Part shown: positions 4,627-44,433 of the stretch, one piece after another
Layout of the letters: every line of letters begins with the position of its first letter
Numbering within the stretch: position 1 is the first letter of the stretch
Assembly: GCA_963638045.1 (NCBI GenBank)
Contig: CAVHPV010000002.1
Location: forward strand, 8 to 64,007
Source of the DNA: Faecalibacterium sp. CAG:74
Lineage (GTDB): Bacteria > Spirochaetota > Spirochaetia > Sphaerochaetales > Sphaerochaetaceae
DNA length: 64,000 nucleotides
Direction: 5' to 3'
Notes under the pieces: generated by a model
Databases searched by the model: none
What the model saw: the letters and a program-made list of their open reading frames with translations, nothing else
Told to the model about the DNA's origin: nothing
Translations under genes and position numbers: made by a program

Positions 4627-5576
4627 ATAAAATAGTAGTAGCAGGAGGAGGTGTATTCGGTACTTCAATAGCAGAGCGCCTCACCTGGAACAGAAATAAC
4701 AACGTAACGATCCACACTATCGAAGAGGACGTTGCTGATGATATAAACAGAAACCACCAGAATACAAAGTATTTTCCAACGAAGTTTCTCTCACCCTCTC
4801 TCAAGGCCACCATGGATGACAGCATCTTCTGCGATGCCGATGTCGTCATGCTCGTCCTTCCCTCCAAAGCCATCGTCCCCTTCTCAAAGAGAATAAAGAC
4901 AGACAAAAATCCCTTGATAGTGAACCTTGCCAAAGGAATGAGCGACGAAGGGGCATTCATCACAGAAGATATTCCCTTTCTCCGCAAAGCCAGTATGAAG
5001 GGACCATCGTTTGCAATCGAGACAATGAACGGTTTCCCGACATCCTTCACCTTCGGAGGAAGGAGGGAGGACTATGAATACTTTAAAGAGAATATTCTTC
5101 CCCATACAGGATTCACGCTTGACTGGACAGAAGATACAAGAAGTGTTGAACTATGCTCCATTCTCAAGAATATGTATGCAATAGCGATAGGACTTGTGTC
5201 AGGAAAGTACGGATCTCCTAATGTGGACTTTCTTGTCTACACAAAGGCAGTAAAGGAAATGAGGGAGCTTTTGAGGCTTTACTCATGCTCGGAGGATACG
5301 ATCTTCTGCTATTGCGGACTGGGGGACCTGGGACTAACCGCCCTCAATGACCTATCACGCAACAGGACATTCGGTATGCTACTCGGAAAGGGATTCCTCT
5401 TCAACGAAGAGAAGAATGCCGCCACAGTAATAGAGGGAAAGAGAACGATAAAACTCGTAAAGAAGTTCATCACAGAGAAGGGAAGAGAAGAAGACTTCCC
5501 GCTTGTGAACAATCTCTACTCCCTTCTCTATGAGAACGGCAGAATCAACGACTACTACGTATCGGTATTGAGTTAA
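4623..5576 (+). CDS. NAD(P)H-dependent glycerol-3-phosphate dehydrogenase family protein (GpsA-like paralogue)
   Basis: Rossmann motif VVAGGGVFGTSIA at the N-terminus. GLGDLGLTALNDLSRNRTFGMLLGKG matches the GpsA signature GLGDLxLTCxSxxSRNRxxG. Overlaps the upstream stop by 4 nt. Confidence 0.7.
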   Translation: MNKIVVAGGGVFGTSIAERLTWNRNNNVTIHTIEEDVADDINRNHQNTKYFPTKFLSPSLKATMDDSIFCDADVVMLVLPSKAIVPFSKRIKTDKNPLIVNLAKGMSDEGAFITEDIPFLRKASMKGPSFAIETMNGFPTSFTFGGRREDYEYFKENILPHTGFTLDWTEDTRSVELCSILKNMYAIAIGLVSGKYGSPNVDFLVYTKAVKEMRELLRLYSCSEDTIFCYCGLGDLGLTALNDLSRNRTFGMLLGKGFLFNEEKNAATVIEGKRTIKLVKKFITEKGREEDFPLVNNLYSLLYENGRINDYYVSVLS

Positions 5577-5577
5577 G

Positions 5578-6924
5578 ATGGATAGATTAAAGAGAAAGGA
5601 AAACCTTAAATCCTTCATAGTCCTCGCCCTTCCCATAGTGGCGGAGGAGATTCTCTCAACCCTGTTGCAATACGTTGACACAGCAATGGTAGGTCAGCTC
5701 GGAGCGTCTGCAACTGCTGCGGTGAGCCTCACAAGCACCGTTAATTGGCTCATCTACTCCCTCTTCGCCTCTTTCGGGATATCAATCGTAGCCATGATTT
5801 CCTCTTCCCTCGGAGCAAAAGACTATGAAAAGATAGAGAAATCCTCCTCAATGGCATTCACCCTCTCAATAGCAATGGGCCTAGTCATAGGGATTATAGC
5901 AATAGCACTTAGTCCCTTCATCCCGAAGTGGATGAACGCCGATGAGGCGATACAGCCCCTCGCCTCTCTCTACTTTGCAATAATCAGTGCAGCCATTCCC
6001 TTCAGGGCATTCATAATCATCGGCTCATCATCATTGAGGGCAATAAAGGACAGTAGAACGCCGATGATTATAAATCTCACGGCAAATGTATTGAACATAA
6101 TCCTTAACTACCTCCTGATCTACACATTCTCGCTCGGAGTTAAGGGAGCAGCCATAGCTACCCTTATTTCCTATGGAGTCGGTGCAATAATAATGGCCGT
6201 AGTCTGGAAAAGAAAGACGATAGTAAGCTACAGAAAAATATACCTTAAGCCGGAGAAGGAGCTAGTTAAAGAAGCATTCACAATAACCCTCCCGGCAGCA
6301 ATGACTAACACGACAAGTTGCCTGGGGCACATAGTATTTGCTTCCCTCGTCTCCTCAATGGGAACAGTGATCTTTGCAGCCCACTCCATAGCACTCTCAG
6401 CAGAGACGATATTCTACGTACCCGGTTACGGCCTCAGGGGAGCAACCTCAACATTGATAGGGATATCACTTGGAGAGAAGGATAAGGAGAAGTTCAGGAT
6501 AATCGAGCACCAGGCAGTGGTAATCACAATAATGATGATGACAGTGACGGGGGCTCTTCTCTACTTCTTTGCCCGCCCCGTCATGTCATTCTTCACACCG
6601 GACGAAAACGTAATAAGAGAAGGAACAAGGATCCTCAAACTCATAGCATTCACAGAGCCGCTCTTCGGCCTCATGATAGTAAGTGAAGGAGTCTACTACG
6701 GACTGGGAGAAACAAAATACCCCTTCATCATAGAGACAATAGGAGCATGGGGAATAAGAATACTCTTTACAAAGATAGCACTCACGTACCTGAATGCCGA
6801 TCTCCTGGGAGTCTGGCTCTGTATGGCCCTGGACAACACCTTCCGCAGCCTCGGCCTAACCCTCCCCATCATGTTCAAGAAGGGCAACAGGCTCTTTGAG
6901 AGGAAAGCGGGGGTAAGTGCATAG
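5578..6924 (+). CDS. MATE-family efflux transporter
   Basis: 448 aa, about 12 hydrophobic segments. N-terminal LALPIVAEEILSTLLQYVDTAMVGQLG is typical of NorM/DinF-type MATE proteins. Confidence 0.8.
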   Translation: MDRLKRKENLKSFIVLALPIVAEEILSTLLQYVDTAMVGQLGASATAAVSLTSTVNWLIYSLFASFGISIVAMISSSLGAKDYEKIEKSSSMAFTLSIAMGLVIGIIAIALSPFIPKWMNADEAIQPLASLYFAIISAAIPFRAFIIIGSSSLRAIKDSRTPMIINLTANVLNIILNYLLIYTFSLGVKGAAIATLISYGVGAIIMAVVWKRKTIVSYRKIYLKPEKELVKEAFTITLPAAMTNTTSCLGHIVFASLVSSMGTVIFAAHSIALSAETIFYVPGYGLRGATSTLIGISLGEKDKEKFRIIEHQAVVITIMMMTVTGALLYFFARPVMSFFTPDENVIREGTRILKLIAFTEPLFGLMIVSEGVYYGLGETKYPFIIETIGAWGIRILFTKIALTYLNADLLGVWLCMALDNTFRSLGLTLPIMFKKGNRLFERKAGVSA

Positions 6925-7016
6925 AGGCGAGTTCTACTCACTTATTACACCCGCAATTACAGCAGATACCAGTCATTGCATTAAAGTAAAATTCCCACAA
7001 AACACTTTTTTAAACA

Positions 7017-7038
7017 GCCGGCATGATGCAATGCCGGC
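7017..7038 (-). terminator. Hairpin downstream of the truncated lipoprotein copy
   Basis: GCCGGCAT-gatgca-ATGCCGGC, an 8-bp stem 8 nt after the stop at 7046. The U-run on the minus strand is weak. The repeat boundary (7029) falls in the loop. Confidence 0.4.
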
Positions 7039-8547
7039 ATCATTCTTACAGGGTCTCGAAGAATGACAAGGTACCATCCCCAAGGATTCTGAATCCACCA
7101 GCTGTCAACTGGATCGCTTCGTTGTCACTAATTTGCCAACCTGTGTTTTCAGCAAATGAATAGCTAACCCCTCTACTTGTGGTGTACCCATTATAATCCA
7201 GGTCCAGAATAACTCCCTTTTTCACAACAAAGGAGTCAGTTTCAACACTAGTTTTATTCACCCAGTATTTTATTTCAGCCACGACACTTCCAGTCTCGCT
7301 CTTTGTAATTCCTTCGACTGTGGTCGACGAGGTGTCCGTTTGTATACCAATAAGAGCTTTTTCAGCACTGAGGAGAACGGCTTTGTAGCTGGCAACAGCA
7401 GTTTCATCCAGTGTAGCCGAGCCGGAAGCAGAAGCAGCCTTGATTGCATCTGCGATACTTGTCCCAGGGGTAGCTTCGCTATTTACTGTCAGGAGGGTTT
7501 TTATTGCAGATCTTGCTCCCGAGCCATCAGCCTTCCCCATTTTCTTCAAGATTTCATCCGCAGCCTTCAGAGTATCAGCAACCTTCTGCATCACAGCTGC
7601 AGCGTTTGTGCCTGTCGTTGCTGTAGTAAATTTGTTCGTGCTTCCACCATACTTCCACGCAGTCTTAGCAGCCTCCAGAGCATCGTCTGCGGTAGTCATT
7701 GCGACCGGATCGCTTGACTTATTCACAGTCACTTCGCAATAGTTTTTGGCATAATATCCGCATTTTGTGCATGTAGCTTTCTGCTCGTCTGTTCTTCCGG
7801 TTGTGGTATCGTAGATATGAGCAACAGGATAGTATTCTAGTCCACACACATCACAGCATACATAGTGGTCTGTCCCGTCCATCAGGTTGTTACTCATGAA
7901 AGACATCAGTTTAAAATTAGAATCATTTCCAACAAATGTCGATCTGTCATTTTCAGCACTGCTCGTGCCATAAAGGTGATTGTGATTCTCGATGAAGACA
8001 ATTTTGCAGGTTTTGGATTCAGCAGCTGTATATGCATTACTGCTATTATCCGAACTCACAACCCAAGCTCCAGTTGAATCTTTTGAGAGATAAATTCCAC
8101 TGCTTAGCTTCAATGCACGTTCTTTTGTATCTTTGCAATCAAAGCGATCTACAAATTCTGCAGTCGCAACACTGCTAGCCTCTGTCGTTGTCCACCCTTT
8201 CCCGTCAGCACAAGAAGATTCAATCTTTTTCACGGTCAGACCATCCGCATTCTCTACAATATCTCCATAAGTAATATTGGTAATATTTCCGTTAGAATCC
8301 AATGTATAGCCGACTAAGGTTCCAACCATATATTTATAAGTTGGAGCAGCTGTTCCACTTGTTTCCACAGGCTTATTCAAATACCCAAGAGACTCAAGGC
8401 AAGATGCACAATATGCTTCGTAACTTACAGGTGTAAATTCTGTTGCAGCAACGGTTTTATCCTTTTCATAATGAGCATCATCTTCGCTTATCCCACCTGC
8501 AACATTTATTTTTCCGTCGGCAGTAAGATAATTTACATATGCACCAT
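7029..8547. repeat. 1,519-bp direct repeat, left copy (partner 10519-12037)
   Basis: Identical to 10519-12037 at offset 3490. Hand-compared lines match, and the translations of four ORFs on both strands are identical between the copies. Confidence 0.95.
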
Positions 8548-8575
8548 CGTTAAATATACACGGATGCTGCTGAAC
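7046..8575 (-). pseudogene. 5'-truncated duplicate of the 621-aa surface lipoprotein gene
   Basis: The C-terminal 444+ codons are identical to 10536-12401, but the signal peptide and lipobox are missing. The frame runs upstream out of the repeat and closes at TAG 8576-8578. No ATG with an SD; only an internal TTG at 8380. Confidence 0.8.
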
Positions 8576-8635
8576 CTATTATTTCTTCAAAGTCCTACAG
8601 CATCTGTATACTTCAAAAGTCAACCATTTAGCTGT

Positions 8636-10348
8636 TTAAGGATGAGGCCACACTGTGCAGATATACCCGACCATCTCATCACACCGCCTCAATATTGATG
8701 TCTCATTCCATGCATCAAAGCCACCAAGACTTTGGCTAATGCGGATAGGAGTATAGCGGTAGCCATAGTTGAAACCGTCCGGGGCATTACCTCTCCAGTC
8801 TCTCTTGAATCCGAAGCGATAATCTCCCATACGGGCATTCTCTCCTCTTGGAAGAATAGTCAGATTTCCCAATGTATGCTGGAATCTATCATGAATAACC
8901 TGTGCTTCTGCTCCCAGGTCAAGTTCCCAATTATAGTCATCAATGTTCTGAACATTCTCCTTTGGAAAAGCAGCCGTATGCATAGTTTCAGGAAGAATAT
9001 GCTCGATAGTTGGGTCTACTAAGGAGAATGCAGGATTAAGAGATTTCTCAATTCTCTCAAGGTAGTAGTATGCGCTCATTAAGCTATAGAAGTCACCATA
9101 ATGCAGATAGTTCAATATTTCATTATCATCAGGCATTCTTTGTTTGCCAGGAAGGTTATTGATGCACTCGATAAAGTCATTCAGGCTGTCAGAATGAGAT
9201 AGGAACATTATCATGGCAGTACCCAATGAATTCGTCGGAACACGGAGAATATCTCTCCTCACTATATAAGACTCGAGGTACCTCAGGATGGCAATTGTGT
9301 CATCAACTAAGACAGTGTGTTTGTCCCACTGATTCAATATCTTAAGAATCAACGGAATAAATATGTCTTTTCCAGTGTAGGAAATATACTTTAGGAGAGT
9401 TGCAATGTCTCTATTTCTAAATGAGTTATTAAGATATTTTGCATAGAGTTTAGCATACTGATGTATCTCAGCAAGAATACTCTCGATGCCTTCAACACTA
9501 CCGGAACTCATAATGAATGTCTTCTTGAAAACGCAGTAGTATTCTTTCTGATCAAGAAGAGTACAGGCTTTAAGTCTTGTAAAATAAAAGAGAAAATCAT
9601 CCATTTTATCAAGAATAAGATCCTCAACAGGTTTCCAATACTGAATGTAGAGCCGATTTTGGTCTCTACTTGTAAGTCCCATAAAAATCCAATTACGCAC
9701 CAGATCGACTTTATTTAAATCAACACCAGTGTCATTTACAGCTTCAAACAGAAGCTGAGGATTCTCATTTGCCTCCAAGGTCACAAGTGCAAGTTGTGCC
9801 TTACTTATACCATCAAAGATAATTGTCGGATTATATTTTTTATCGACCAGACTCTTAAGGAAGAAGTTATAGTTTTCGGACATCTTCCCGTCTCCAATTA
9901 CCCCATGCAGAAGGCTTATATATTCATTCCTGTCTGTACCTTCTTTCGGAAGTAACTTTGTAAACAAGCTTGTGTTTATTAATGCATCATTTACAAGGTA
10001 AATTTTCTTTATATTACCAAGAATTGCTGATGTAGTGTCAGGCACAGTCTGAACAGGATAATCACTCCAGTATCTCTCCAAAGCAAGCAGGAGAAGTGTA
10101 ATCGTTGTGGTTCTCTGCTGTCCATCTATTACATTGTAGACATTTACAACTCCTGCAGCCTGTTCCTCTTTCAAAATGATTGACCCGACATAATGATTAG
10201 CATTCCCGGGAGTCCCGGCCTTGATAATATCCTCCAATAACTTCTCGCAATTCTCTTTCCCCCAGGCATAATTCCTTTGGTAGATAGGAATCTGGTACTG
10301 CTTGATTCCTGACAAAAGCGAAAAGAAGTCGCTCGGTGTAATTCTCAT
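8636..10348 (-). CDS. GmrSD-like type IV restriction endonuclease candidate (DUF262 N-terminal + DUF1524 His-Me/HNH C-terminal domain)
   Basis: 570 aa. QIPIYQRNYAWGKENCEKLLEDI and VIDGQQRTTT (DUF262 / ParB-like DGQQR motif). C-terminal IEHILPE ... HTLGNLTILPRGENARMGD (DUF1524). Strong SD AAGGAGG upstream of the ATG at 10348. Confidence 0.8.
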   Translation of the reverse strand: MRITPSDFFSLLSGIKQYQIPIYQRNYAWGKENCEKLLEDIIKAGTPGNANHYVGSIILKEEQAAGVVNVYNVIDGQQRTTTITLLLLALERYWSDYPVQTVPDTTSAILGNIKKIYLVNDALINTSLFTKLLPKEGTDRNEYISLLHGVIGDGKMSENYNFFLKSLVDKKYNPTIIFDGISKAQLALVTLEANENPQLLFEAVNDTGVDLNKVDLVRNWIFMGLTSRDQNRLYIQYWKPVEDLILDKMDDFLFYFTRLKACTLLDQKEYYCVFKKTFIMSSGSVEGIESILAEIHQYAKLYAKYLNNSFRNRDIATLLKYISYTGKDIFIPLILKILNQWDKHTVLVDDTIAILRYLESYIVRRDILRVPTNSLGTAMIMFLSHSDSLNDFIECINNLPGKQRMPDDNEILNYLHYGDFYSLMSAYYYLERIEKSLNPAFSLVDPTIEHILPETMHTAAFPKENVQNIDDYNWELDLGAEAQVIHDRFQHTLGNLTILPRGENARMGDYRFGFKRDWRGNAPDGFNYGYRYTPIRISQSLGGFDAWNETSILRRCDEMVGYICTVWPHP

Positions 10349-10506
10349 AATATTTCTCCTCCTTCAAAGCTTCTTATCTAAAGCAACCAAAATAAAAAGT
10401 TCCCCCTAAACAAAAAGCTATAACCAGAAGGGGAACCGTCAGGTTATAGCAATAAAGTAAAAATGGAATATTAATTTTATTTCCATTAAATACAATGTTT
10501 AAATCA

Positions 10507-10527
10507 CCGGCATTCAAACAATGCCGG
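10507..10527 (-). terminator. Hairpin downstream of the intact lipoprotein gene
   Basis: CCGGCAT-tcaaaca-ATGCCGG, 9 nt after the stop at 10536. The right arm lies inside the repeat. The left arm lies outside it but is still complementary. Confidence 0.4.
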
Positions 10528-12037
10528 CATCATTCTTACAGGGTCTCGAAGAATGACAAGGTACCATCCCCAAGGATTCTGAATCCACCAGCTGTCAACT
10601 GGATCGCTTCGTTGTCACTAATTTGCCAACCTGTGTTTTCAGCAAATGAATAGCTAACCCCTCTACTTGTGGTGTACCCATTATAATCCAGGTCCAGAAT
10701 AACTCCCTTTTTCACAACAAAGGAGTCAGTTTCAACACTAGTTTTATTCACCCAGTATTTTATTTCAGCCACGACACTTCCAGTCTCGCTCTTTGTAATT
10801 CCTTCGACTGTGGTCGACGAGGTGTCCGTTTGTATACCAATAAGAGCTTTTTCAGCACTGAGGAGAACGGCTTTGTAGCTGGCAACAGCAGTTTCATCCA
10901 GTGTAGCCGAGCCGGAAGCAGAAGCAGCCTTGATTGCATCTGCGATACTTGTCCCAGGGGTAGCTTCGCTATTTACTGTCAGGAGGGTTTTTATTGCAGA
11001 TCTTGCTCCCGAGCCATCAGCCTTCCCCATTTTCTTCAAGATTTCATCCGCAGCCTTCAGAGTATCAGCAACCTTCTGCATCACAGCTGCAGCGTTTGTG
11101 CCTGTCGTTGCTGTAGTAAATTTGTTCGTGCTTCCACCATACTTCCACGCAGTCTTAGCAGCCTCCAGAGCATCGTCTGCGGTAGTCATTGCGACCGGAT
11201 CGCTTGACTTATTCACAGTCACTTCGCAATAGTTTTTGGCATAATATCCGCATTTTGTGCATGTAGCTTTCTGCTCGTCTGTTCTTCCGGTTGTGGTATC
11301 GTAGATATGAGCAACAGGATAGTATTCTAGTCCACACACATCACAGCATACATAGTGGTCTGTCCCGTCCATCAGGTTGTTACTCATGAAAGACATCAGT
11401 TTAAAATTAGAATCATTTCCAACAAATGTCGATCTGTCATTTTCAGCACTGCTCGTGCCATAAAGGTGATTGTGATTCTCGATGAAGACAATTTTGCAGG
11501 TTTTGGATTCAGCAGCTGTATATGCATTACTGCTATTATCCGAACTCACAACCCAAGCTCCAGTTGAATCTTTTGAGAGATAAATTCCACTGCTTAGCTT
11601 CAATGCACGTTCTTTTGTATCTTTGCAATCAAAGCGATCTACAAATTCTGCAGTCGCAACACTGCTAGCCTCTGTCGTTGTCCACCCTTTCCCGTCAGCA
11701 CAAGAAGATTCAATCTTTTTCACGGTCAGACCATCCGCATTCTCTACAATATCTCCATAAGTAATATTGGTAATATTTCCGTTAGAATCCAATGTATAGC
11801 CGACTAAGGTTCCAACCATATATTTATAAGTTGGAGCAGCTGTTCCACTTGTTTCCACAGGCTTATTCAAATACCCAAGAGACTCAAGGCAAGATGCACA
11901 ATATGCTTCGTAACTTACAGGTGTAAATTCTGTTGCAGCAACGGTTTTATCCTTTTCATAATGAGCATCATCTTCGCTTATCCCACCTGCAACATTTATT
12001 TTTCCGTCGGCAGTAAGATAATTTACATATGCACCAT
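10519..12037. repeat. 1,519-bp direct repeat, right copy (partner 7029-8547)
   Basis: See the left copy. This copy lies entirely within the intact lipoprotein gene and its terminator arm. Confidence 0.95.
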
Positions 12038-12401
12038 TTTTTAAAACTGCATGCGGGACTTTCATTCCAGCTTCAGCAGCTTCCTTTGGAGTAACGATCT
12101 CCTGGAATTCTGCACCACACACCTGACAACGATATGTATAGATACCGTCCTGAACACAATTCAAAGGCTGTTCTTCTTTTTTAACGGCATTTTTAGCATG
12201 ACTATGACCAAGAGCGGCAACAGTCTCTGTCTTAGTTTCTCCACATGTGGTACATGTGAATGTTATCTCACCAGTCGTTGTACATGATGGTGCCAAGGTC
12301 TGTTTTCCTTCATCCCACGTATGCTTGTGGTTTTCAGGTGAACATGCCACGGCAACAAACACCAAGACAACCAACATTACGATTGATAATGTTTTCTTCA
12401 T
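10536..12401 (-). CDS. Surface lipoprotein with N-terminal His/Cys (zinc-ribbon-like) modules
   Basis: 621 aa. Signal peptide MKKTLSIVMLVVLVFVAVAC with a lipobox Cys. The mature N-terminus carries HKHTW...CTTCGE and GHSH...CQVCGA modules. Confidence 0.8.
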   Translation of the reverse strand: MKKTLSIVMLVVLVFVAVACSPENHKHTWDEGKQTLAPSCTTTGEITFTCTTCGETKTETVAALGHSHAKNAVKKEEQPLNCVQDGIYTYRCQVCGAEFQEIVTPKEAAEAGMKVPHAVLKNGAYVNYLTADGKINVAGGISEDDAHYEKDKTVAATEFTPVSYEAYCASCLESLGYLNKPVETSGTAAPTYKYMVGTLVGYTLDSNGNITNITYGDIVENADGLTVKKIESSCADGKGWTTTEASSVATAEFVDRFDCKDTKERALKLSSGIYLSKDSTGAWVVSSDNSSNAYTAAESKTCKIVFIENHNHLYGTSSAENDRSTFVGNDSNFKLMSFMSNNLMDGTDHYVCCDVCGLEYYPVAHIYDTTTGRTDEQKATCTKCGYYAKNYCEVTVNKSSDPVAMTTADDALEAAKTAWKYGGSTNKFTTATTGTNAAAVMQKVADTLKAADEILKKMGKADGSGARSAIKTLLTVNSEATPGTSIADAIKAASASGSATLDETAVASYKAVLLSAEKALIGIQTDTSSTTVEGITKSETGSVVAEIKYWVNKTSVETDSFVVKKGVILDLDYNGYTTSRGVSYSFAENTGWQISDNEAIQLTAGGFRILGDGTLSFFETL

Positions 12402-12454
12402 AAATAATTTACCCCTTTGGGACAGAAGTCCCTCAATTTTTACTTTTCAAAGAG

Positions 12455-12484
12455 AGTATACCCCCCCCCGTATATTTTTTGCAA
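12455..12484 (-). promoter_or_regulatory. Candidate sigma-70 promoter of the lipoprotein gene with a G9 homopolymer in the spacer
   Basis: The minus strand reads TTGCAA (12484-12479), aaaatatacGGGGGGGGG (18-nt spacer; C9 on the + strand at 12461-12469), TATACT (12460-12455). It lies about 55 nt upstream of the ATG at 12401. Confidence 0.6.
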
Positions 12485-12549
12485 GTGTTTTATTGAACTG
12501 ATGAAGGAAAAATATAGAAGTTATATGAGTTTTCGGGGCTTCCGGGCAA

Positions 12550-12581
12550 TAAAAAATCCCATAGGAGAGGCCCTACGGGAT
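12550..12581 (-). terminator. Rho-independent terminator after the SIMPL lipoprotein gene
   Basis: The minus strand reads ATCCCGTAGG-gcctct-CCTATGGGAT followed by TTTTTT. It lies 26 nt downstream of the stop at 12607. Confidence 0.7.
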
Positions 12582-12606
12582 GTGTATCTTCTTATTTCGA
12601 GTTGAG

Positions 12607-13329
12607 TTATCTAAGTTCGAAGACTGCTGTGACTGTTGCTGATACGCTTAAGTCTCCTGCATAGTAAGTTGTAGAAGAATAGCTGTCTGCTGCGGCTGCC
12701 TCGGCAAACATCATCTTGGAATTGGAGTAGTCATAGGAAGAATAGGAGACGGATCCCTCGGCAAGGGAGACTACCTTCCCCACTGTCATATTCACTCCCT
12801 TGGCATAATCGGATGCTTTCTCCAGGGCACTTATTGCCGCTCCTTCACGTGCTTTCTTCACATCCTCTGTCGTATCGAGCTTCGAATATGATATCGAGGA
12901 AATCGAGATCCCGTCGAGAACACTGAGCCTGTCATAGACCTTTCCAGCCTTTTCCAACCCATTCTTTATTGTAATATTAAGGCTCTGTGTTGCTCTCTGC
13001 CCCGAGAGTGTCCTTGAGCCGTCCACCCATTCATAATAAGGATTAATATTCATATAGTTGGTGACTATCTCGTCATCTGTTATACCATACTCATCCTTGA
13101 GGATACTTATTGCCTCACTTATCATTTTACTTGATGCATTCCTTGCTTCTTCTGTTGTAGGCTCCAGGGATTCTGCCGTTATTGTGAATGAAGCTGCATC
13201 AGGAGTGACTGAAACTGAGCTTGTTGCTGTCACTGTTATATATGACTTTTCATTCTTCAAAGTTGAACAGCTTGTGAAAGCTAGAAGCAATACAAATACT
13301 AATAAGATACTGCATGTGAGTTTTTTCAT
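12607..13329 (-). CDS. SIMPL/DUF541-domain lipoprotein
   Basis: 240 aa. Lipobox LLAFTSC. ITVTATSSVSVTPD... start and overall beta-rich pattern typical of SIMPL (DUF541). ATGA overlap with the upstream Nudix gene. Confidence 0.6.
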   Translation of the reverse strand: MKKLTCSILLVFVLLLAFTSCSTLKNEKSYITVTATSSVSVTPDAASFTITAESLEPTTEEARNASSKMISEAISILKDEYGITDDEIVTNYMNINPYYEWVDGSRTLSGQRATQSLNITIKNGLEKAGKVYDRLSVLDGISISSISYSKLDTTEDVKKAREGAAISALEKASDYAKGVNMTVGKVVSLAEGSVSYSSYDYSNSKMMFAEAAAADSYSSTTYYAGDLSVSATVTAVFELR

Positions 13330-16405: not shown

Positions 16406-18577
16406 ATGGCCCAGAAGAAAATCAATTTCATGTGTACAGCCTTCAGAGACGGCTTCCAGTCCGTCTACGGTGCGAGGGTATTCACAAAAGACTTCATGCC
16501 GGCTGTTGCCGCAGCCAAGGAAGCAGGCATCAGACACTTCGAAGCAGGTGGCGGTGCAAGATTCCAGGCTCTCTACTTCTATACAAATGAAGATGCTTTC
16601 GCAATGATGGACGAATTCAGAAAGGTTGCAGGACCTGATGCCAACCTCCAGACTCTCGCACGCGGTGTCAACATCGTAGGTCTTGATTCCCAGCCGAGAG
16701 ATATGATCAAGCTCCATGCTCAGCTTTTCAAGAAGCACGGCATGACAACCATCCGTAACTTCGATGCACTCAATGATGTCAACAACCTCATCGACAGCGG
16801 TAATGCCATCCATGATGCCGGCCTCAAGCATGAGATCACAGTCACTATGATGAGTCTTCCGGAAGGCGTCAACGGCGCACACAACCCTGACTTCTATGAA
16901 AGGATCCTCAAGGAAATCCTTGCTGCAAAGATTCCTTTCGATTCTCTCTGTTTCAAGGATGCTTCAGGCACATCAACACCTCACAATGTTTATGAGACAA
17001 TCAAGAGAGCACGCAAGCTCGTCGGTCCGAACATGAACATCGTCTTCCATTCACATGAGACAGCAGGTGTTTCCATCCAGCAATACATGGCAGCTATCGA
17101 GGCAGGGGCAAACCAGCTCGACCTCTCCATGTCTCCTGTATCAGGCGGAACATGCCAGCCCGATATCATAACAATGTGGCACGCTCTCAGAGGAACTGAC
17201 TACACACTCGATATCGATATCGAGAAGGTCAGAAAGGCTGAAAGCGTATTCGAGGAATGCATGGCTGACTACTTCCTTCCTCCTGAGGCAACAAAGGTCA
17301 ACCCTGAAATTCCGTTCTTCCCGCTCCCGGGTGGCGCTCTCACTGCAAACACACAGATGCTCAGGGACAACAACCTCATGGACAAGTATCCGCAGATTGT
17401 CGCTGCAATGGGCGAGACAGTCGCAAAGGGCGGCTTCGGTACTTCCGTCACCCCTGTAAGCCAGTTCTACTTCCAGCAGGCATTCAACAACGTAATGTTC
17501 GGGCCGTGGAAGAAGTTTGCTGAAGGCTACGGAAAGATGGTTCTCGGCTACTTCGGAAAGACTCCTGTCGCTCCGGACCCGGAAGTTGTAAAGCTTGCTT
17601 CCGAGCAGCTCCACCTCGAGCCTACAACTGAGAAGGTTGTAGATATCAACGACAGAGACCCCAAGAAGGGTGTTGCTGCAGCAAAGGCTATGCTCGAGAA
17701 GGAAAACCTTCCTCTCACAGACGAAAACATCTTCATCGCTGGTGCATGTAAGGAAAAGGGTATCCTCTACCTCACAGGTAAGGCACATGTTAATGGTGTC
17801 AGACTCAAGAGCGAGATGGCTAAGGAAGAAGAGGCTAAGAAGGCTCAGGCTCCAGCTAGCAAGAAGAGCGCAAACGGCGAATACACAGTCACAGTCGGCG
17901 GCACAGCTTACGGCGTAAAGATCAGTGGCAACAAGGCTGTTGTAAACGGCAAGGAATATCCTTTGAATGTTGTTGACGGAATCAAGGCTCCAACAGCTGC
18001 AGTAAAGTCTGAGGCTAAGGAAGTCAAGAAGGTTGTCAAGACAACAGGAAGCACAGAAGTTGTTGCACCAATGCCGGGACTCGCACTGAGGTTCGAAGTC
18101 AAGGTCGGTGACACTGTCAAGAAGGACCAGGTTCTCTGTGTCATGGAAGCTATGAAGATGGAGAACGAAATCTACTCTCCATGTGACGGCGTTGTCTCAT
18201 CAATCACTGCTAACCAGGGCGACCAGCTCCAGGCAGGCGACCTCTTGATGACAATCGGAGGCTCTGTTGAAGAAGTAGTCGAAGAAGTCGTTGAGGAAGT
18301 TGTTGAAGAGCCAGTGGCTGCACCAGTTGAAGAGACAAAGGAAGAAGTTGCAGTTTCTGGAGAAGGAACAGAGGTTCTCGCACCTATGCCGGGTCTGGCA
18401 CTCAGATTCGAGGTTAAGGTCGGAGATAAGGTTGAGAAGGACCAGGTTCTCTGTGTCATGGAAGCTATGAAGATGGAAAATGAAATCTATTCTCCTGTTG
18501 CAGGCACAGTCGCATCAATCAATGTTAACCAGGGCGATCAGCTTCAGGCTGGTGACCTTTTGATGGTTATCGCATAA
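16406..18577 (+). CDS. oadA: Oxaloacetate decarboxylase alpha subunit (carboxyltransferase) with two C-terminal biotinyl domains
   Basis: 723 aa. N-terminal TIM-barrel carboxyltransferase region (FRDGFQS, HSHETAG). Two copies of [15 protein letters not shown]...[15 protein letters not shown] separated by an (EEVV)x3 linker. Confidence 0.85.
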
Positions 18578-42052: not shown

Positions 42053-42127
42053 GAAAAAAATCTCAAACTAGGTCATTATCTGACCTAGTACACTCTCTAT
42101 ACTGGTTCTGTCATAAGGAGACAAAAG

Positions 42128-42448
42128 ATGACTTATTCAGAGACAAGAGAGATGTACACATCCTTCTATGCGGAGAGCAGAAGGGAAAGAGAGAAAAGAA
42201 CCGGATTGCTGTTAAACGCTTTTAAACTCCTTTATTCATGTTTTCTGCCATGGCTTATAACTTCACTATGCATTGTGAGAGTACATAACCTCCACAATGC
42301 AAAGGGCTTTCTTCTTTCTTTCGTTATACTCGGCCTTTCCCTTCCCTTCTACTCAAGTGCATCCAATAGTGACAGGACATACTTCCTCTCCTGTACCATC
42401 CTTTCATACCTTATTGCACTTTCATCAGTCCTCACTGTTCTTATGTAG
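42128..42448 (+). CDS. Small hydrophobic membrane protein (106 aa), copy 1
   Basis: SD AAGGAG 7 nt upstream, about 3 TM segments, followed by a terminator hairpin. Duplicated identically at 44070-44390. Confidence 0.5.
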   Translation: MTYSETREMYTSFYAESRREREKRTGLLLNAFKLLYSCFLPWLITSLCIVRVHNLHNAKGFLLSFVILGLSLPFYSSASNSDRTYFLSCTILSYLIALSSVLTVLM

Positions 42449-42469
42449 GACTCACCCAACACCCCTTAT

Positions 42470-42491
42470 GCCGGGCTCATAACCCGGCTTT
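42470..42491 (+). terminator. Hairpin terminator at the end of repeat copy 1
   Basis: GCCGGG-ctcataa-CCCGGC followed by TTT. It overlaps the last codons and the stop of the minus-strand antitoxin gene. Confidence 0.5.
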
Positions 42492-43487
42492 ATTATGCAC
42501 CGTTGAGTAAAGATCACTCGAGTAGAGAAAAATATCATCCGGGGTTTTCATCCCGTATTTTTCCTTTATAGCTAGAAAGAAATCACCTATTGCTTTTCTG
42601 TCTATCACCTTATCTGAATGAGAATCTTCTTCTGTCTCGCCTCTAGTCTCAATCCAGGGAGTCTCACTGTGGGTGAAGGCTTCAAGTATCTTTCCGCTGT
42701 AGCAGCATATATTATTGATGACACTGTCTATCACAGCCTTCTCTTCTCTGGAGAATACGGGAAGAGGAGATTTGGAGTTATCAGAAATTGGATTGAAATG
42801 ATAATCTGCATACTTCTTATAGACATTGCGGTAGACAGGGCCGTGTGCCCAAGCTTCACAGTCCTCTTCGAAAATGAACTTTGAATAGAATGCATAGAAA
42901 AATCCCTGGATGTAATAAAGCGCTTTCTGAAGTGCCAGTGGAGTTATATCCTCACATCTGTCGATAAGATAGACAATCACAGAAGAGATCGCCTCGCTGC
43001 ATTCTACCTCATTACTCCCAAGCAAAACCTCTGCCGCCATCCGGCTCTTAGCATAGCTTTTCTTTGAGATTTTTTCTCTCCCGGCCTCCAGCAGATTAAG
43101 ATAATATCCCGGGTCCTCATAGAGATTTTCCAGGGTCTGAGAGTATTGCCTTGTCGGGATATCACCATCAAGATAACGCTCAAGCGTATGTTCACCCCAC
43201 CCAAGAAGCACGGAGAGAGGCCTCTTACCGATCTTATATCTTTCAGGGAGAGTACGGACTTTCTCCAGCGATATTATTCCATTTTCGCTTCTATATTTAT
43301 CATAGAGTGCCGTCAGGTTACACTCCCCGATCTCCCAGACATCGAGATTTCCCCCGCATTCTGCGCACCTTACCTCTTTTCCTTTATATTTGTAGACAGT
43401 GCCGCGTATTGTCCCTGTCATCTCCTTCTCTTCAATTATATAATCGACATCCTTCCTGCAATTGACACAGAAAACCTTGTCAGTCAT
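42477..43487 (-). CDS. Fusion antitoxin: MqsA-like zinc ribbon + HTH fused to a Panacea (DUF4065/SocA-like) domain
   Basis: CVNCRK...CAECGG zinc ribbon, an HTH-like region (ISLEKVRTLPERYKIGKRPLSVLLGWGEHTLERYLDG), then ITPLALQKALYYIQGFFYAFYSKFIFEEDCEAWAHGPVYRNVYKKY, typical of DUF4065. Start at MTDKVF, overlapping the toxin stop by 8 nt. Confidence 0.65.
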   Translation of the reverse strand: MTDKVFCVNCRKDVDYIIEEKEMTGTIRGTVYKYKGKEVRCAECGGNLDVWEIGECNLTALYDKYRSENGIISLEKVRTLPERYKIGKRPLSVLLGWGEHTLERYLDGDIPTRQYSQTLENLYEDPGYYLNLLEAGREKISKKSYAKSRMAAEVLLGSNEVECSEAISSVIVYLIDRCEDITPLALQKALYYIQGFFYAFYSKFIFEEDCEAWAHGPVYRNVYKKYADYHFNPISDNSKSPLPVFSREEKAVIDSVINNICCYSGKILEAFTHSETPWIETRGETEEDSHSDKVIDRKAIGDFFLAIKEKYGMKTPDDIFLYSSDLYSTVHNKAGL

Positions 43488-43926
43488 GCTTTTTCTCCTT
43501 TCTAAACAGATATTCAACGGGTCTATTTAATTTATGTAGTGAAATCACAACGGTCCAGTCGCCATCCTCTCTCTTGATCAAATTGAACTTTGTATAAACA
43601 TCGACGCTTTCTTTTTCTCCAACAGCATTATAGAGGACAACACGGGGAACAAATACATAAAGAACTTCGTCCTCATATCCTTTCTTCATATTCCTGAGAG
43701 TGTGGCAGAAATCATCAACGGTGATTTCCAAGAGGAGCCTCTTCCTCTTTTTATGATAAAGATTGTACTCATTTATGAAAGATATATTCTCCTGTCTGTT
43801 CTCGTTCATTGAAACCTGGAATCTGTCATTTTCCACGCACTCCTTAATTCTGGACAGCACAGCGTCTATCTCGCTCTTTGTGTAATCCCTCTTATAATAC
43901 TGATTCGACATACCCCTCCCCAACAT
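43480..43926 (-). CDS. MqsR-like (RelE/YoeB-superfamily) toxin candidate
   Basis: 148 aa (143 aa if it starts at 43911). Hand alignment to E. coli MqsR: LEITVDDFCHTL versus GLSESDFYKSM, VDVYTKFNL...VVISLHK versus QVYLKITV...LIVSFKEK. Toxin-first order as in mqsRA. Confidence 0.5.
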   Translation of the reverse strand: MLGRGMSNQYYKRDYTKSEIDAVLSRIKECVENDRFQVSMNENRQENISFINEYNLYHKKRKRLLLEITVDDFCHTLRNMKKGYEDEVLYVFVPRVVLYNAVGEKESVDVYTKFNLIKREDGDWTVVISLHKLNRPVEYLFRKEKKHD

Positions 43927-44008: not shown

Positions 44009-44433
44009 ACTAGGTCATTATCTGACCTAGTGCACTCTCTATACTGGTTCTGTCATAAGGAGACAAAAGATGACTTATTCAGAGACAAGAGAGATGTACA
44101 CATCCTTCTATGCGGAGAGCAGAAGGGAAAGAGAGAAAAGAACCGGATTGCTGTTAAACGCTTTTAAACTCCTTTATTCATGTTTTCTGCCATGGCTTAT
44201 AACTTCACTATGCATTGTGAGAGTACATAACCTCCACAATGCAAAGGGCTTTCTTCTTTCTTTCGTTATACTCGGCCTTTCCCTTCCCTTCTACTCAAGT
44301 GCATCCAATAGTGACAGGACATACTTCCTCTCCTGTACCATCCTTTCATACCTTATTGCACTTTCATCAGTCCTCACTGTTCTTATGTAGGACTCACCCA
44401 ACACCCCTTATGCCGGGCTCATAACCCGGCTTT
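44009..44433. repeat. 425-bp direct repeat, right copy (partner 42067-42491)
   Basis: See the left copy. Confidence 0.95.
44070..44390 (+). CDS. Small hydrophobic membrane protein (106 aa), copy 2
   Basis: Identical translation to 42128-42448. This copy has an intact TTGAC upstream and a longer T-run after its terminator. Confidence 0.5.
   Translation: MTYSETREMYTSFYAESRREREKRTGLLLNAFKLLYSCFLPWLITSLCIVRVHNLHNAKGFLLSFVILGLSLPFYSSASNSDRTYFLSCTILSYLIALSSVLTVLM

Follow-up and report, generated by a model that had tools for sequence, protein, structure and literature searches.

How does a gene for a restriction enzyme come to lie between two perfect copies of part of a neighbouring gene? The question is raised by a locus in a stretch of 64,000 nucleotides (nt) from contig CAVHPV010000002.1 (assembly GCA_963638045.1, Faecalibacterium sp. 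CAG:74, a gut spirochaete placed by GTDB in the Sphaerochaetaceae; contig positions 8 to 64,007). We call this whole stretch the window and number all positions from its first letter. An intact gene of the GmrSD family of type IV (modification-dependent) restriction enzymes is bracketed here by two identical, directly oriented 1,519-bp copies of part of a lipoprotein gene, an arrangement that can be written A-B-A. A preliminary description saw in this a recent integration of foreign DNA by a single crossover (Campbell-type integration) and a reversible switch. We favour, with moderate confidence, a different explanation drawn from sequence comparison: part of the lipoprotein gene would have been duplicated long ago on the other side of the GmrSD gene, in a variable slot between core genes, and recent gene conversion would have homogenised the copies. 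On this view the locus combines two arrangements of known kinds, in that GmrSD occupies a hotspot and the duplicated gene evolves in concert.

The repeat itself is as it was first reported. Base-by-base comparison at an offset of 3,490 bp gives one unbroken identical run (7029-8547 and 10519-12037, 1,519 bp), and the second-longest identical run at this offset is 5 bp. Self-BLAST returns the pair as 6999-8547 and 10489-12037 with 99.4% identity because its alignment extends into weakly similar flanking sequence. The segment between the copies (8548-10518, 1,971 bp) has a G+C content of 0.387, compared with 0.435 in the repeats and about 0.46 in the flanks; it is therefore more AT-rich than its surroundings, as had been noticed by eye, but modestly so. 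The GmrSD gene is the only substantial open reading frame (ORF) in this segment, which includes no replication or recombinase gene. The locus also differs from an integrase or transposase island in that there is no recombinase gene and the repeats are 1.5 kb of a host gene rather than short att sites. A simple tandem duplication was considered and rejected, since only 1,519 bp of the 3,490-bp period recurs and a second deletion would be demanded.

The right copy is part of an intact gene for a cysteine-rich lipoprotein of 621 amino acids (10536-12401, minus strand) with the leader MKKTLSIVMLVVLVFVAVAC, followed by S. A promoter-like site lies upstream (12455-12484, minus strand; TTGCAA and TATACT separated by an 18-nt spacer, 9/12 matches). 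The left copy is truncated at its 5' end. Its frame (7046-8575, minus strand) corresponds to residues ~122-621 of the intact protein (119-621 by tblastn) and has no leader peptide. It is closed upstream by a TAG at 8578-8576 and its earliest possible start is a TTG at 8380. All of this agrees with the preliminary description, and the truncated copy is probably a pseudogene. Self-BLAST finds no further copies of the lipoprotein gene in the window.

Concerted evolution by gene conversion is familiar from tufA and tufB in Salmonella and from rRNA operons. Its signature, copies within a genome that are far closer to each other than to their orthologues, is seen here on comparison with a sister species. 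The locus of this species is found on contig L004 (ENA ERZ15610573), which has a low coverage of 4.3x and is partly confirmed by the Logan contig L005. The 3' end of the MATE efflux gene on L004 is identical, in the overlap, to the corresponding sequence of L007. Among the species that a scan with the MATE protein retrieved, L007 is the closest (90% protein identity to the MATE of the window). The core genes flanking the slot show 81-86% nucleotide identity and a synonymous divergence (dS) of 0.8-1.1 between the window and the sister species. Read in the minus orientation of the window, L004 carries the 3' end of a lipoprotein gene (its last 120 nt), a terminator of the CCGGCAT type, the same two hairpins that are found in the window, a remnant of the GmrSD gene, a truncated lipoprotein gene and MATE. 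The GmrSD remnant keeps the ribosome-binding region and the first ~80-130 nt of the gene, but the ATG is lost. The sister species thus shares the topology of the window, and its GmrSD was removed by a deletion in which the repeats took no part.

The second lipoprotein copy of L004 (P0002) is leaderless, has 427 codons and shows 68.7% DNA identity to the repeat of the window. The two copies of L004 match each other at 82/84 bases over their sole visible overlap, while L004 and the window match at 64/86 bases over the same stretch. Identity is thus far higher within genomes (1519/1519 and 82/84, the latter over just 84 nt) than between species (69%), in two lineages with the same arrangement, and this is what argues for gene conversion. 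That the sister species shares this layout is the reason for judging the duplicate to be old. The edge between the perfect tract and its diverged flank is sharp, as in other cases of concerted evolution. The differences are that one partner is truncated and probably non-functional and that the copies lie 2 kb apart, flanking a defence gene. We note that the first mismatch between the two copies of L004 is exactly 33 nt from the beginning of the contig, which would fit a break of the assembly graph at k=33 at a longer perfect repeat.

The sister species also bears on the claim that the insertion was recent, which is not supported. The preliminary description had itself held that the same arrangement with diverged repeats, and no empty sites, in all related genomes would point to an ancient duplication, and a 69%-identical allele in the same layout, in this one relative, comes close to that.

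On the explanation that we favour, the lipoprotein gene would have been partially duplicated long ago on the far side of GmrSD; it may have arisen through Campbell-type integration in the distant past, or through an unequal exchange and a subsequent deletion. Recent gene conversion between the direct copies would then have generated the perfect 1,519-bp identity, in a tract bounded by the loop of the terminator at one end and by the site of the original truncation at the other. Conversion would passively refresh the truncated copy, which is most likely a pseudogene.

The two ends of the repeat are consistent with this. At its 3' end the truncated copy has a terminator-like hairpin, GCCGGCATGATGCAATGCCGGC (7017-7038), and the repeat boundary falls at the 3' end of the hairpin loop; a corresponding hairpin, CCGGCATTCAAACAATGCCGG (10507-10527), is present at the 3' end of the intact gene. 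Both retain a CCGGCAT arm outside the perfect repeat. The preliminary description had recorded the boundary in the loop and the outer arms correctly, but the arms are not a coincidence of the crossover point. They are retained because diverged homology runs for ~40 nt past the perfect tract: 6989-7028 (minus strand) aligns with 10479-10518 with a score of 12, compared with 3.7 +/- 1.7 for shuffled sequences, none of which (0/1,000) reaches 12. The original duplication was probably larger than the perfect tract. An edge in the hairpin loop with diverged homology beyond it is what would be expected, from the sequence, of a gene-conversion endpoint. At the other end (the 8547/8548 junction, on the 5' side of the repeat) there is no residual similarity beyond the tract, and this end looks like the original truncation breakpoint.

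The stretch from the lipoprotein gene to GmrSD holds two further hairpins (10410-10500, minus strand), with a T-run after each; they are conserved in other contigs (L004, 150-250; L091, 1885-1975; L092, 125-215; L087, 1-45; L006, 1-85). In stem 2, four stem pairs show compensatory changes. An Rfam scan of 6800-12700 gives no match, and the hairpins therefore belong to no known RNA family. Possibly they serve as terminators or insulators and delimit a cargo slot on one side. An attC-like reading of hairpin 2 was rejected by inspection, on account of its short stem, the T-run after it and core motifs that do not match. In L091 the two hairpins follow another allele of the lipoprotein gene and the next gene is not GmrSD. 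Together with L004, this identifies the right ~110 nt of the segment as the native 3' flank of the lipoprotein family. Contrary to what had been proposed, the segment is thus not foreign DNA up to both repeat boundaries.

Pan-genome studies have described hotspots of defence genes that lie between core genes and include no mobility genes. The 5.7-kb block 6925-12606 consists of accessory DNA and occupies a variable slot of this type, between the convergent core genes MATE (5578-6924, plus strand; Pfam MatE, E 7.5e-59) and SIMPL/DUF541 (12607-13329, minus strand; Pfam SIMPL, E 3.1e-37), both of which are supported by synteny. On the minus strand, the block comprises the lipoprotein gene, its terminator, the two hairpins, GmrSD and the 5'-truncated lipoprotein duplicate. 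We compared the slot in gut assemblies of the Sphaerochaetaceae/Spirochaetaceae type, which were retrieved using the MATE protein and reduced to one genome per species. About 15 species share the order aGal-GPD-MATE> <SIMPL-NUDIX-Mrp. The distance from MATE to SIMPL is only ~10 bp in two of these (L014 and L018), 0.4-0.6 kb in several others and 1.5-3 kb, with unrelated cargo, in six (L009, L011, L012, L016, L017 and L021). The cargo includes AAA-type ATPases, an M20-like peptidase and another small lipoprotein. Neither the lipoprotein gene nor GmrSD is present in any of these slots, and the block is therefore accessory cargo rather than a core gene that has received an insert. No recombinase (integrase or transposase) was seen in the slot of any species compared. 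In this respect the slot, which is empty or holds other cargo in related species, resembles the known hotspots; it differs in that the cargo elsewhere consists mostly of ATPases of uncertain role (in about 15 assembled genomes). The preliminary description had suggested looking for an empty site carrying a single lipoprotein gene. None was found among the other species compared, and their empty sites are also without the lipoprotein gene. Some of the assemblies used (the H076xx 'cleanbin' assemblies, within L007-L021) carry organism names such as Comamonas kerstersii, Clostridium sp. and Muribaculaceae. These names look unreliable because they disagree with the spirochaete-like synteny and with the 70-90% protein identity to the locus.

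The GmrSD gene (8636-10348, minus strand) is intact and encodes a protein of 570 amino acids, identified in the preliminary description as a DUF262/DUF1524 enzyme with its own ribosome-binding site. Pfam, PADLOC and motif searches all bear this out, and an AGGAGG precedes the ATG. The N-terminal domain matches GmrSD_N (PF03235, the ParB-like DUF262, E 2.5e-34, residues 10-222) and the C-terminal domain GmrSD_C (PF07510, DUF1524, a nuclease domain of the His-Me finger/HNH-like kind, E 5.6e-12, residues 406-560), both above the gathering thresholds. PADLOC reports Orf5 and HEC-06 over the full length and mREase_IV over part of it (C-terminal). The motif DGQQR occurs at residue 75, and EHILP (449) and GNLT (494) are found in the C-terminal domain. 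This is the two-domain architecture of the GmrSD/BrxU/SspE family, here as a single-gene system embedded in neither a BREX nor an Ssp locus. The protein is only distantly related to those with solved structures, among which there is one distant match, confined to the N-terminus (9jfl, E 1.3e-6). Enzymes of this family cleave modified DNA, such as DNA with glucosyl-hmC or other hypermodified bases, and protect against phage; the expected role of the present protein is that of a stand-alone nuclease in innate defence.

Homologues of the GmrSD protein with 98-60% identity are found in other genomic contexts. Those at 70-74% identity, in L087 and L092, have the same hairpins upstream and no lipoprotein gene nearby; an FRG-domain gene follows GmrSD in L087 and genes for membrane proteins follow it in L092. 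More distant homologues (65-67% identity) are located in defence islands or adjoin a serine recombinase. There is no match in IMG/VR, and matches in phage and plasmid records are limited to <=30% identity; nothing thus indicates that a known mobile element brought the gene in. We also considered the truncated lipoprotein copy as a conserved operon partner of GmrSD. This was rejected because L087 and L092 have other genes downstream.

Unequal or intramolecular recombination between the two copies can either delete GmrSD, leaving one intact lipoprotein gene, or amplify it. The deletion of a 3,490-bp circle by recombination of the RecA type, as envisaged in the preliminary description, is thus possible. 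The reversal that would make it a switch is not supported: the segment has no replication, recombinase or integration function, so that the excised circle would be lost and the loss of GmrSD would be irreversible within the cell. Re-entry is conceivable just by re-acquisition from other cells, by analogy with what has been proposed for the wzy locus of Salmonella (PMC12074656). At that locus, in Salmonella Typhimurium, 113-bp perfect intergenic direct repeats are present, and excision, a circle and reversion have been shown experimentally (PMC12074656). The two loci are alike in that a chromosomal gene relevant to phage lies between perfect direct repeats, that its loss leaves one copy of the repeat and that there is no internal recombinase. 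They differ in that the wzy repeats are short and intergenic, while those described here are 1,519-bp copies of a neighbouring gene at a locus known from its sequence.

Several observations weigh against an old duplication kept uniform by gene conversion, a process that is inferred rather than observed. The case for concerted evolution in the sister species relies on a short overlap, because only 84 nt of its first lipoprotein copy are visible, on a contig of 4.3x coverage. In addition, a contig from another run (L006, SRR19415659), representing a closer strain, carries a copy of GmrSD that is 96.7% identical in nucleotide sequence to that of the window and shares the left end of the segment. 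Downstream of GmrSD it matches just 14 nt of the repeat (ATGGTGCATATGTA) and then diverges, so that in part of the lineage the truncated copy is either absent or different in sequence. The switch after 14 nt could go back to a rearrangement that took place later in that strain, or to microhomology where the original break occurred. The same layout may also, conceivably, have formed independently in the two lineages. Finally, a second repeat-bracketed cargo elsewhere in the contig hints at a recurrent origin by insertion with duplication. As a separate observation on L006, its positions 1909-1964 (window 8560-8534 and beyond) show a 12-nt deletion just downstream of GmrSD.

The second repeat-bracketed cargo, which has the same architecture, would favour the strongest competing explanation, that of the preliminary description. 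In Campbell-type insertion-duplication, a single crossover between a circle carrying a gene fragment and the resident gene leaves one intact and one truncated copy around the insert. Here, a non-replicating circle carrying a 3' fragment of the lipoprotein gene, the hairpins and GmrSD would recently have recombined once with a single-copy resident, and could pop out again. The A-B-A geometry fits exactly: the copies are direct and perfectly identical, and one is intact and the other 5'-truncated. In addition, 8547/8548 is the only junction without flanking homology, as expected where a circle had been closed, and GmrSD with its hairpins does move between contexts. Excision that depends on repeats and yields a circular form is documented at the wzy locus (PMC12074656). 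This part of the earlier reading, the geometry, stands; its recency, foreign boundaries and empty site are not supported. The sister species already has this topology with an allele that has diverged by 31%, so any integration must be ancient and the perfect identity would still require gene conversion. The layout therefore predates the species split, and the right end of the segment is native lipoprotein flank. No empty site with a single lipoprotein gene and no circle have been seen in the assembled contigs examined, and the segment carries neither a replication nor a recombinase gene. Moreover, such an event would demand a donor and a recipient that did not differ anywhere along 1,519 bp but showed ~30% divergence immediately past this stretch. 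A recent integration is, in our opinion, unlikely.

Less likely again is that the A-B-A structure results from an ambiguity in the assembly graph. The genome might hold a single-copy locus together with a free 3,490-bp circle, or an (A-B)n-A array, or two near-identical copies whose differences were removed by bubble popping. The window comes from a 64,015-bp NCBI contig, probably a short-read assembly and apparently of an uncultured genome; for this reason the copy number and perfect identity rest on the traversal of a loop in the graph, in which the repeat is a collapsed node. Independent contigs assembled by Logan from the short-read run SRR13434599 illustrate this. One (L001) equals window 8518-10548 and so covers the segment together with exactly 30 nt of either repeat copy; another equals window 5387-7058, stopping 30 nt into the repeat. 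Contigs thus break exactly k-1 = 30 nt into the repeat, both from the left flank and from the segment. No Logan contig examined spans the 1.5-kb repeat, and the NCBI protein of this region has no Logan-derived protein in its cluster. Independent support nevertheless exists for three of the four junctions (left flank to repeat and both joins of repeat and segment); the junction at 12037/12038, from the right copy to the 5' part of the lipoprotein gene, is found in none of the independent Logan contigs. In these contigs, which stop 30 nt into the repeat, both ends of the segment adjoin the repeat and nothing else. On that evidence A-B-A must be present in any linear genome with the segment, which leaves as alternatives only a free 3.49-kb circle, implausible as a plasmid in view of its lack of a replication gene, or an (A-B)n array. 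The sister-species contig L004, moreover, links a lipoprotein end, a remnant of the segment, the second copy and MATE in a single contig. Collapse by the assembler could still have turned near-identical copies into perfect ones. Perfect repeats of kilobase size in short-read metagenome contigs should, as a general caution, be regarded as loop traversals and not as measured structures.

The second repeat-bracketed structure, identified by self-BLAST, lies at 42-44 kb between metK and a gene for an M18 aminopeptidase. It consists of 425-bp direct repeats (42067-42491 and 44009-44433; offset 1,942), which differ by one mismatch, at 42090, and whose edges lie at hairpins. The 1,517 bp between them include two minus-strand ORFs. 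One encodes 148 amino acids (43480-43926) and the other an antitoxin of 346 amino acids with a Panacea/SocA domain (42477-43517), the last five codons of which fall inside the left repeat. Relatives of this antitoxin (44-52% identity) occur on viral contigs. A metagenome scan with MetK for empty sites of this structure returned only matches of <=58% identity. One other repeat in the window is ordinary: 18053-18250 and 18368-18565 are 198-bp direct repeats, 82% identical, that encode a C-terminal tandem pair of biotinyl/lipoyl carrier domains in a carboxylase/decarboxylase alpha-type protein of 723 amino acids (16406-18577).

Two repeat-bracketed cargos of the defence type within 64 kb may reflect a recurrent process. 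They are unrelated to each other, GmrSD in one case and a putative Panacea-domain toxin-antitoxin pair in the other; in both, the long, perfect or nearly perfect direct repeats are made of neighbouring host DNA and no recombinase is present. One could imagine an integrase-free, RecA-driven cassette cycle, in which a cargo loops out as a circle together with adjacent host DNA and re-enters, by a single crossover, any genome with that host sequence. We regard a cycle of this kind as quite improbable.

The lipoprotein gene belongs to a rare and fast-evolving family with a conserved leader. Pfam assigns it to no family (a sub-threshold zinc-ribbon match aside), true relatives number four among 5.8 billion proteins, and a metagenome scan using an alignment of the lipoprotein found no relative. 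The full-length alleles P0003 and P0004 are ~35% identical overall to the protein of the window. The leader (encoded by 12333-12401), MKKTLSIVMLVVLVFVAVACSPE, is nearly identical across P0003, P0004 and L091 (positions 1-50); it is the same in P0003 and matches at 20/23 residues in P0004. Around the start codon 39 nt are identical, although the mature proteins share just ~35% identity. Contigs of other samples break at or near this conserved 5' stretch (L091 begins 10 nt before the ATG; L003 ends at 12458, ~55 nt upstream of the start codon), which suggests that several alleles or paralogues have it in common. The possibility that the truncation point marks a module boundary was rejected, as the repeat ends at residue 122 and the alleles diverge from ~residue 195.

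The remaining alternative, that the truncated copy is a silent cassette for surface-lipoprotein variation in the style of vmp, vls or pilS, recently copied into the expression site with GmrSD a bystander, might draw on the conserved leader followed by 55% amino acid identity over the N-terminal ~195 residues and 29% over the remainder (window versus P0004), on the truncated, promoterless copies with open frames in two species and on the contig breaks just described, but it is very improbable, because such systems have several diverged promoterless cassettes, while the 64-kb window holds a single one that is identical to the expressed gene and offers no diversity, its truncation at residue 122 does not coincide with the divergence of alleles from ~residue 195, and the ratio of nonsynonymous to synonymous divergence (dN/dS) between alleles is <0.4, although dS is saturated.

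How defence genes enter hotspots that lack mobility genes is an open question in the field. As it stands, the locus combines a type IV restriction gene in a variable slot, a partial duplication that is apparently kept identical by conversion, and direct repeats that leave the gene between them open to loss and amplification. If the cassette cycle were true, it would provide hotspots with a means of gain, loss and amplification of defence genes. The locus would matter more if its architecture proved to be recurrent and active, as it would then offer a testable answer to how defence genes move into hotspots that are free of mobility genes.

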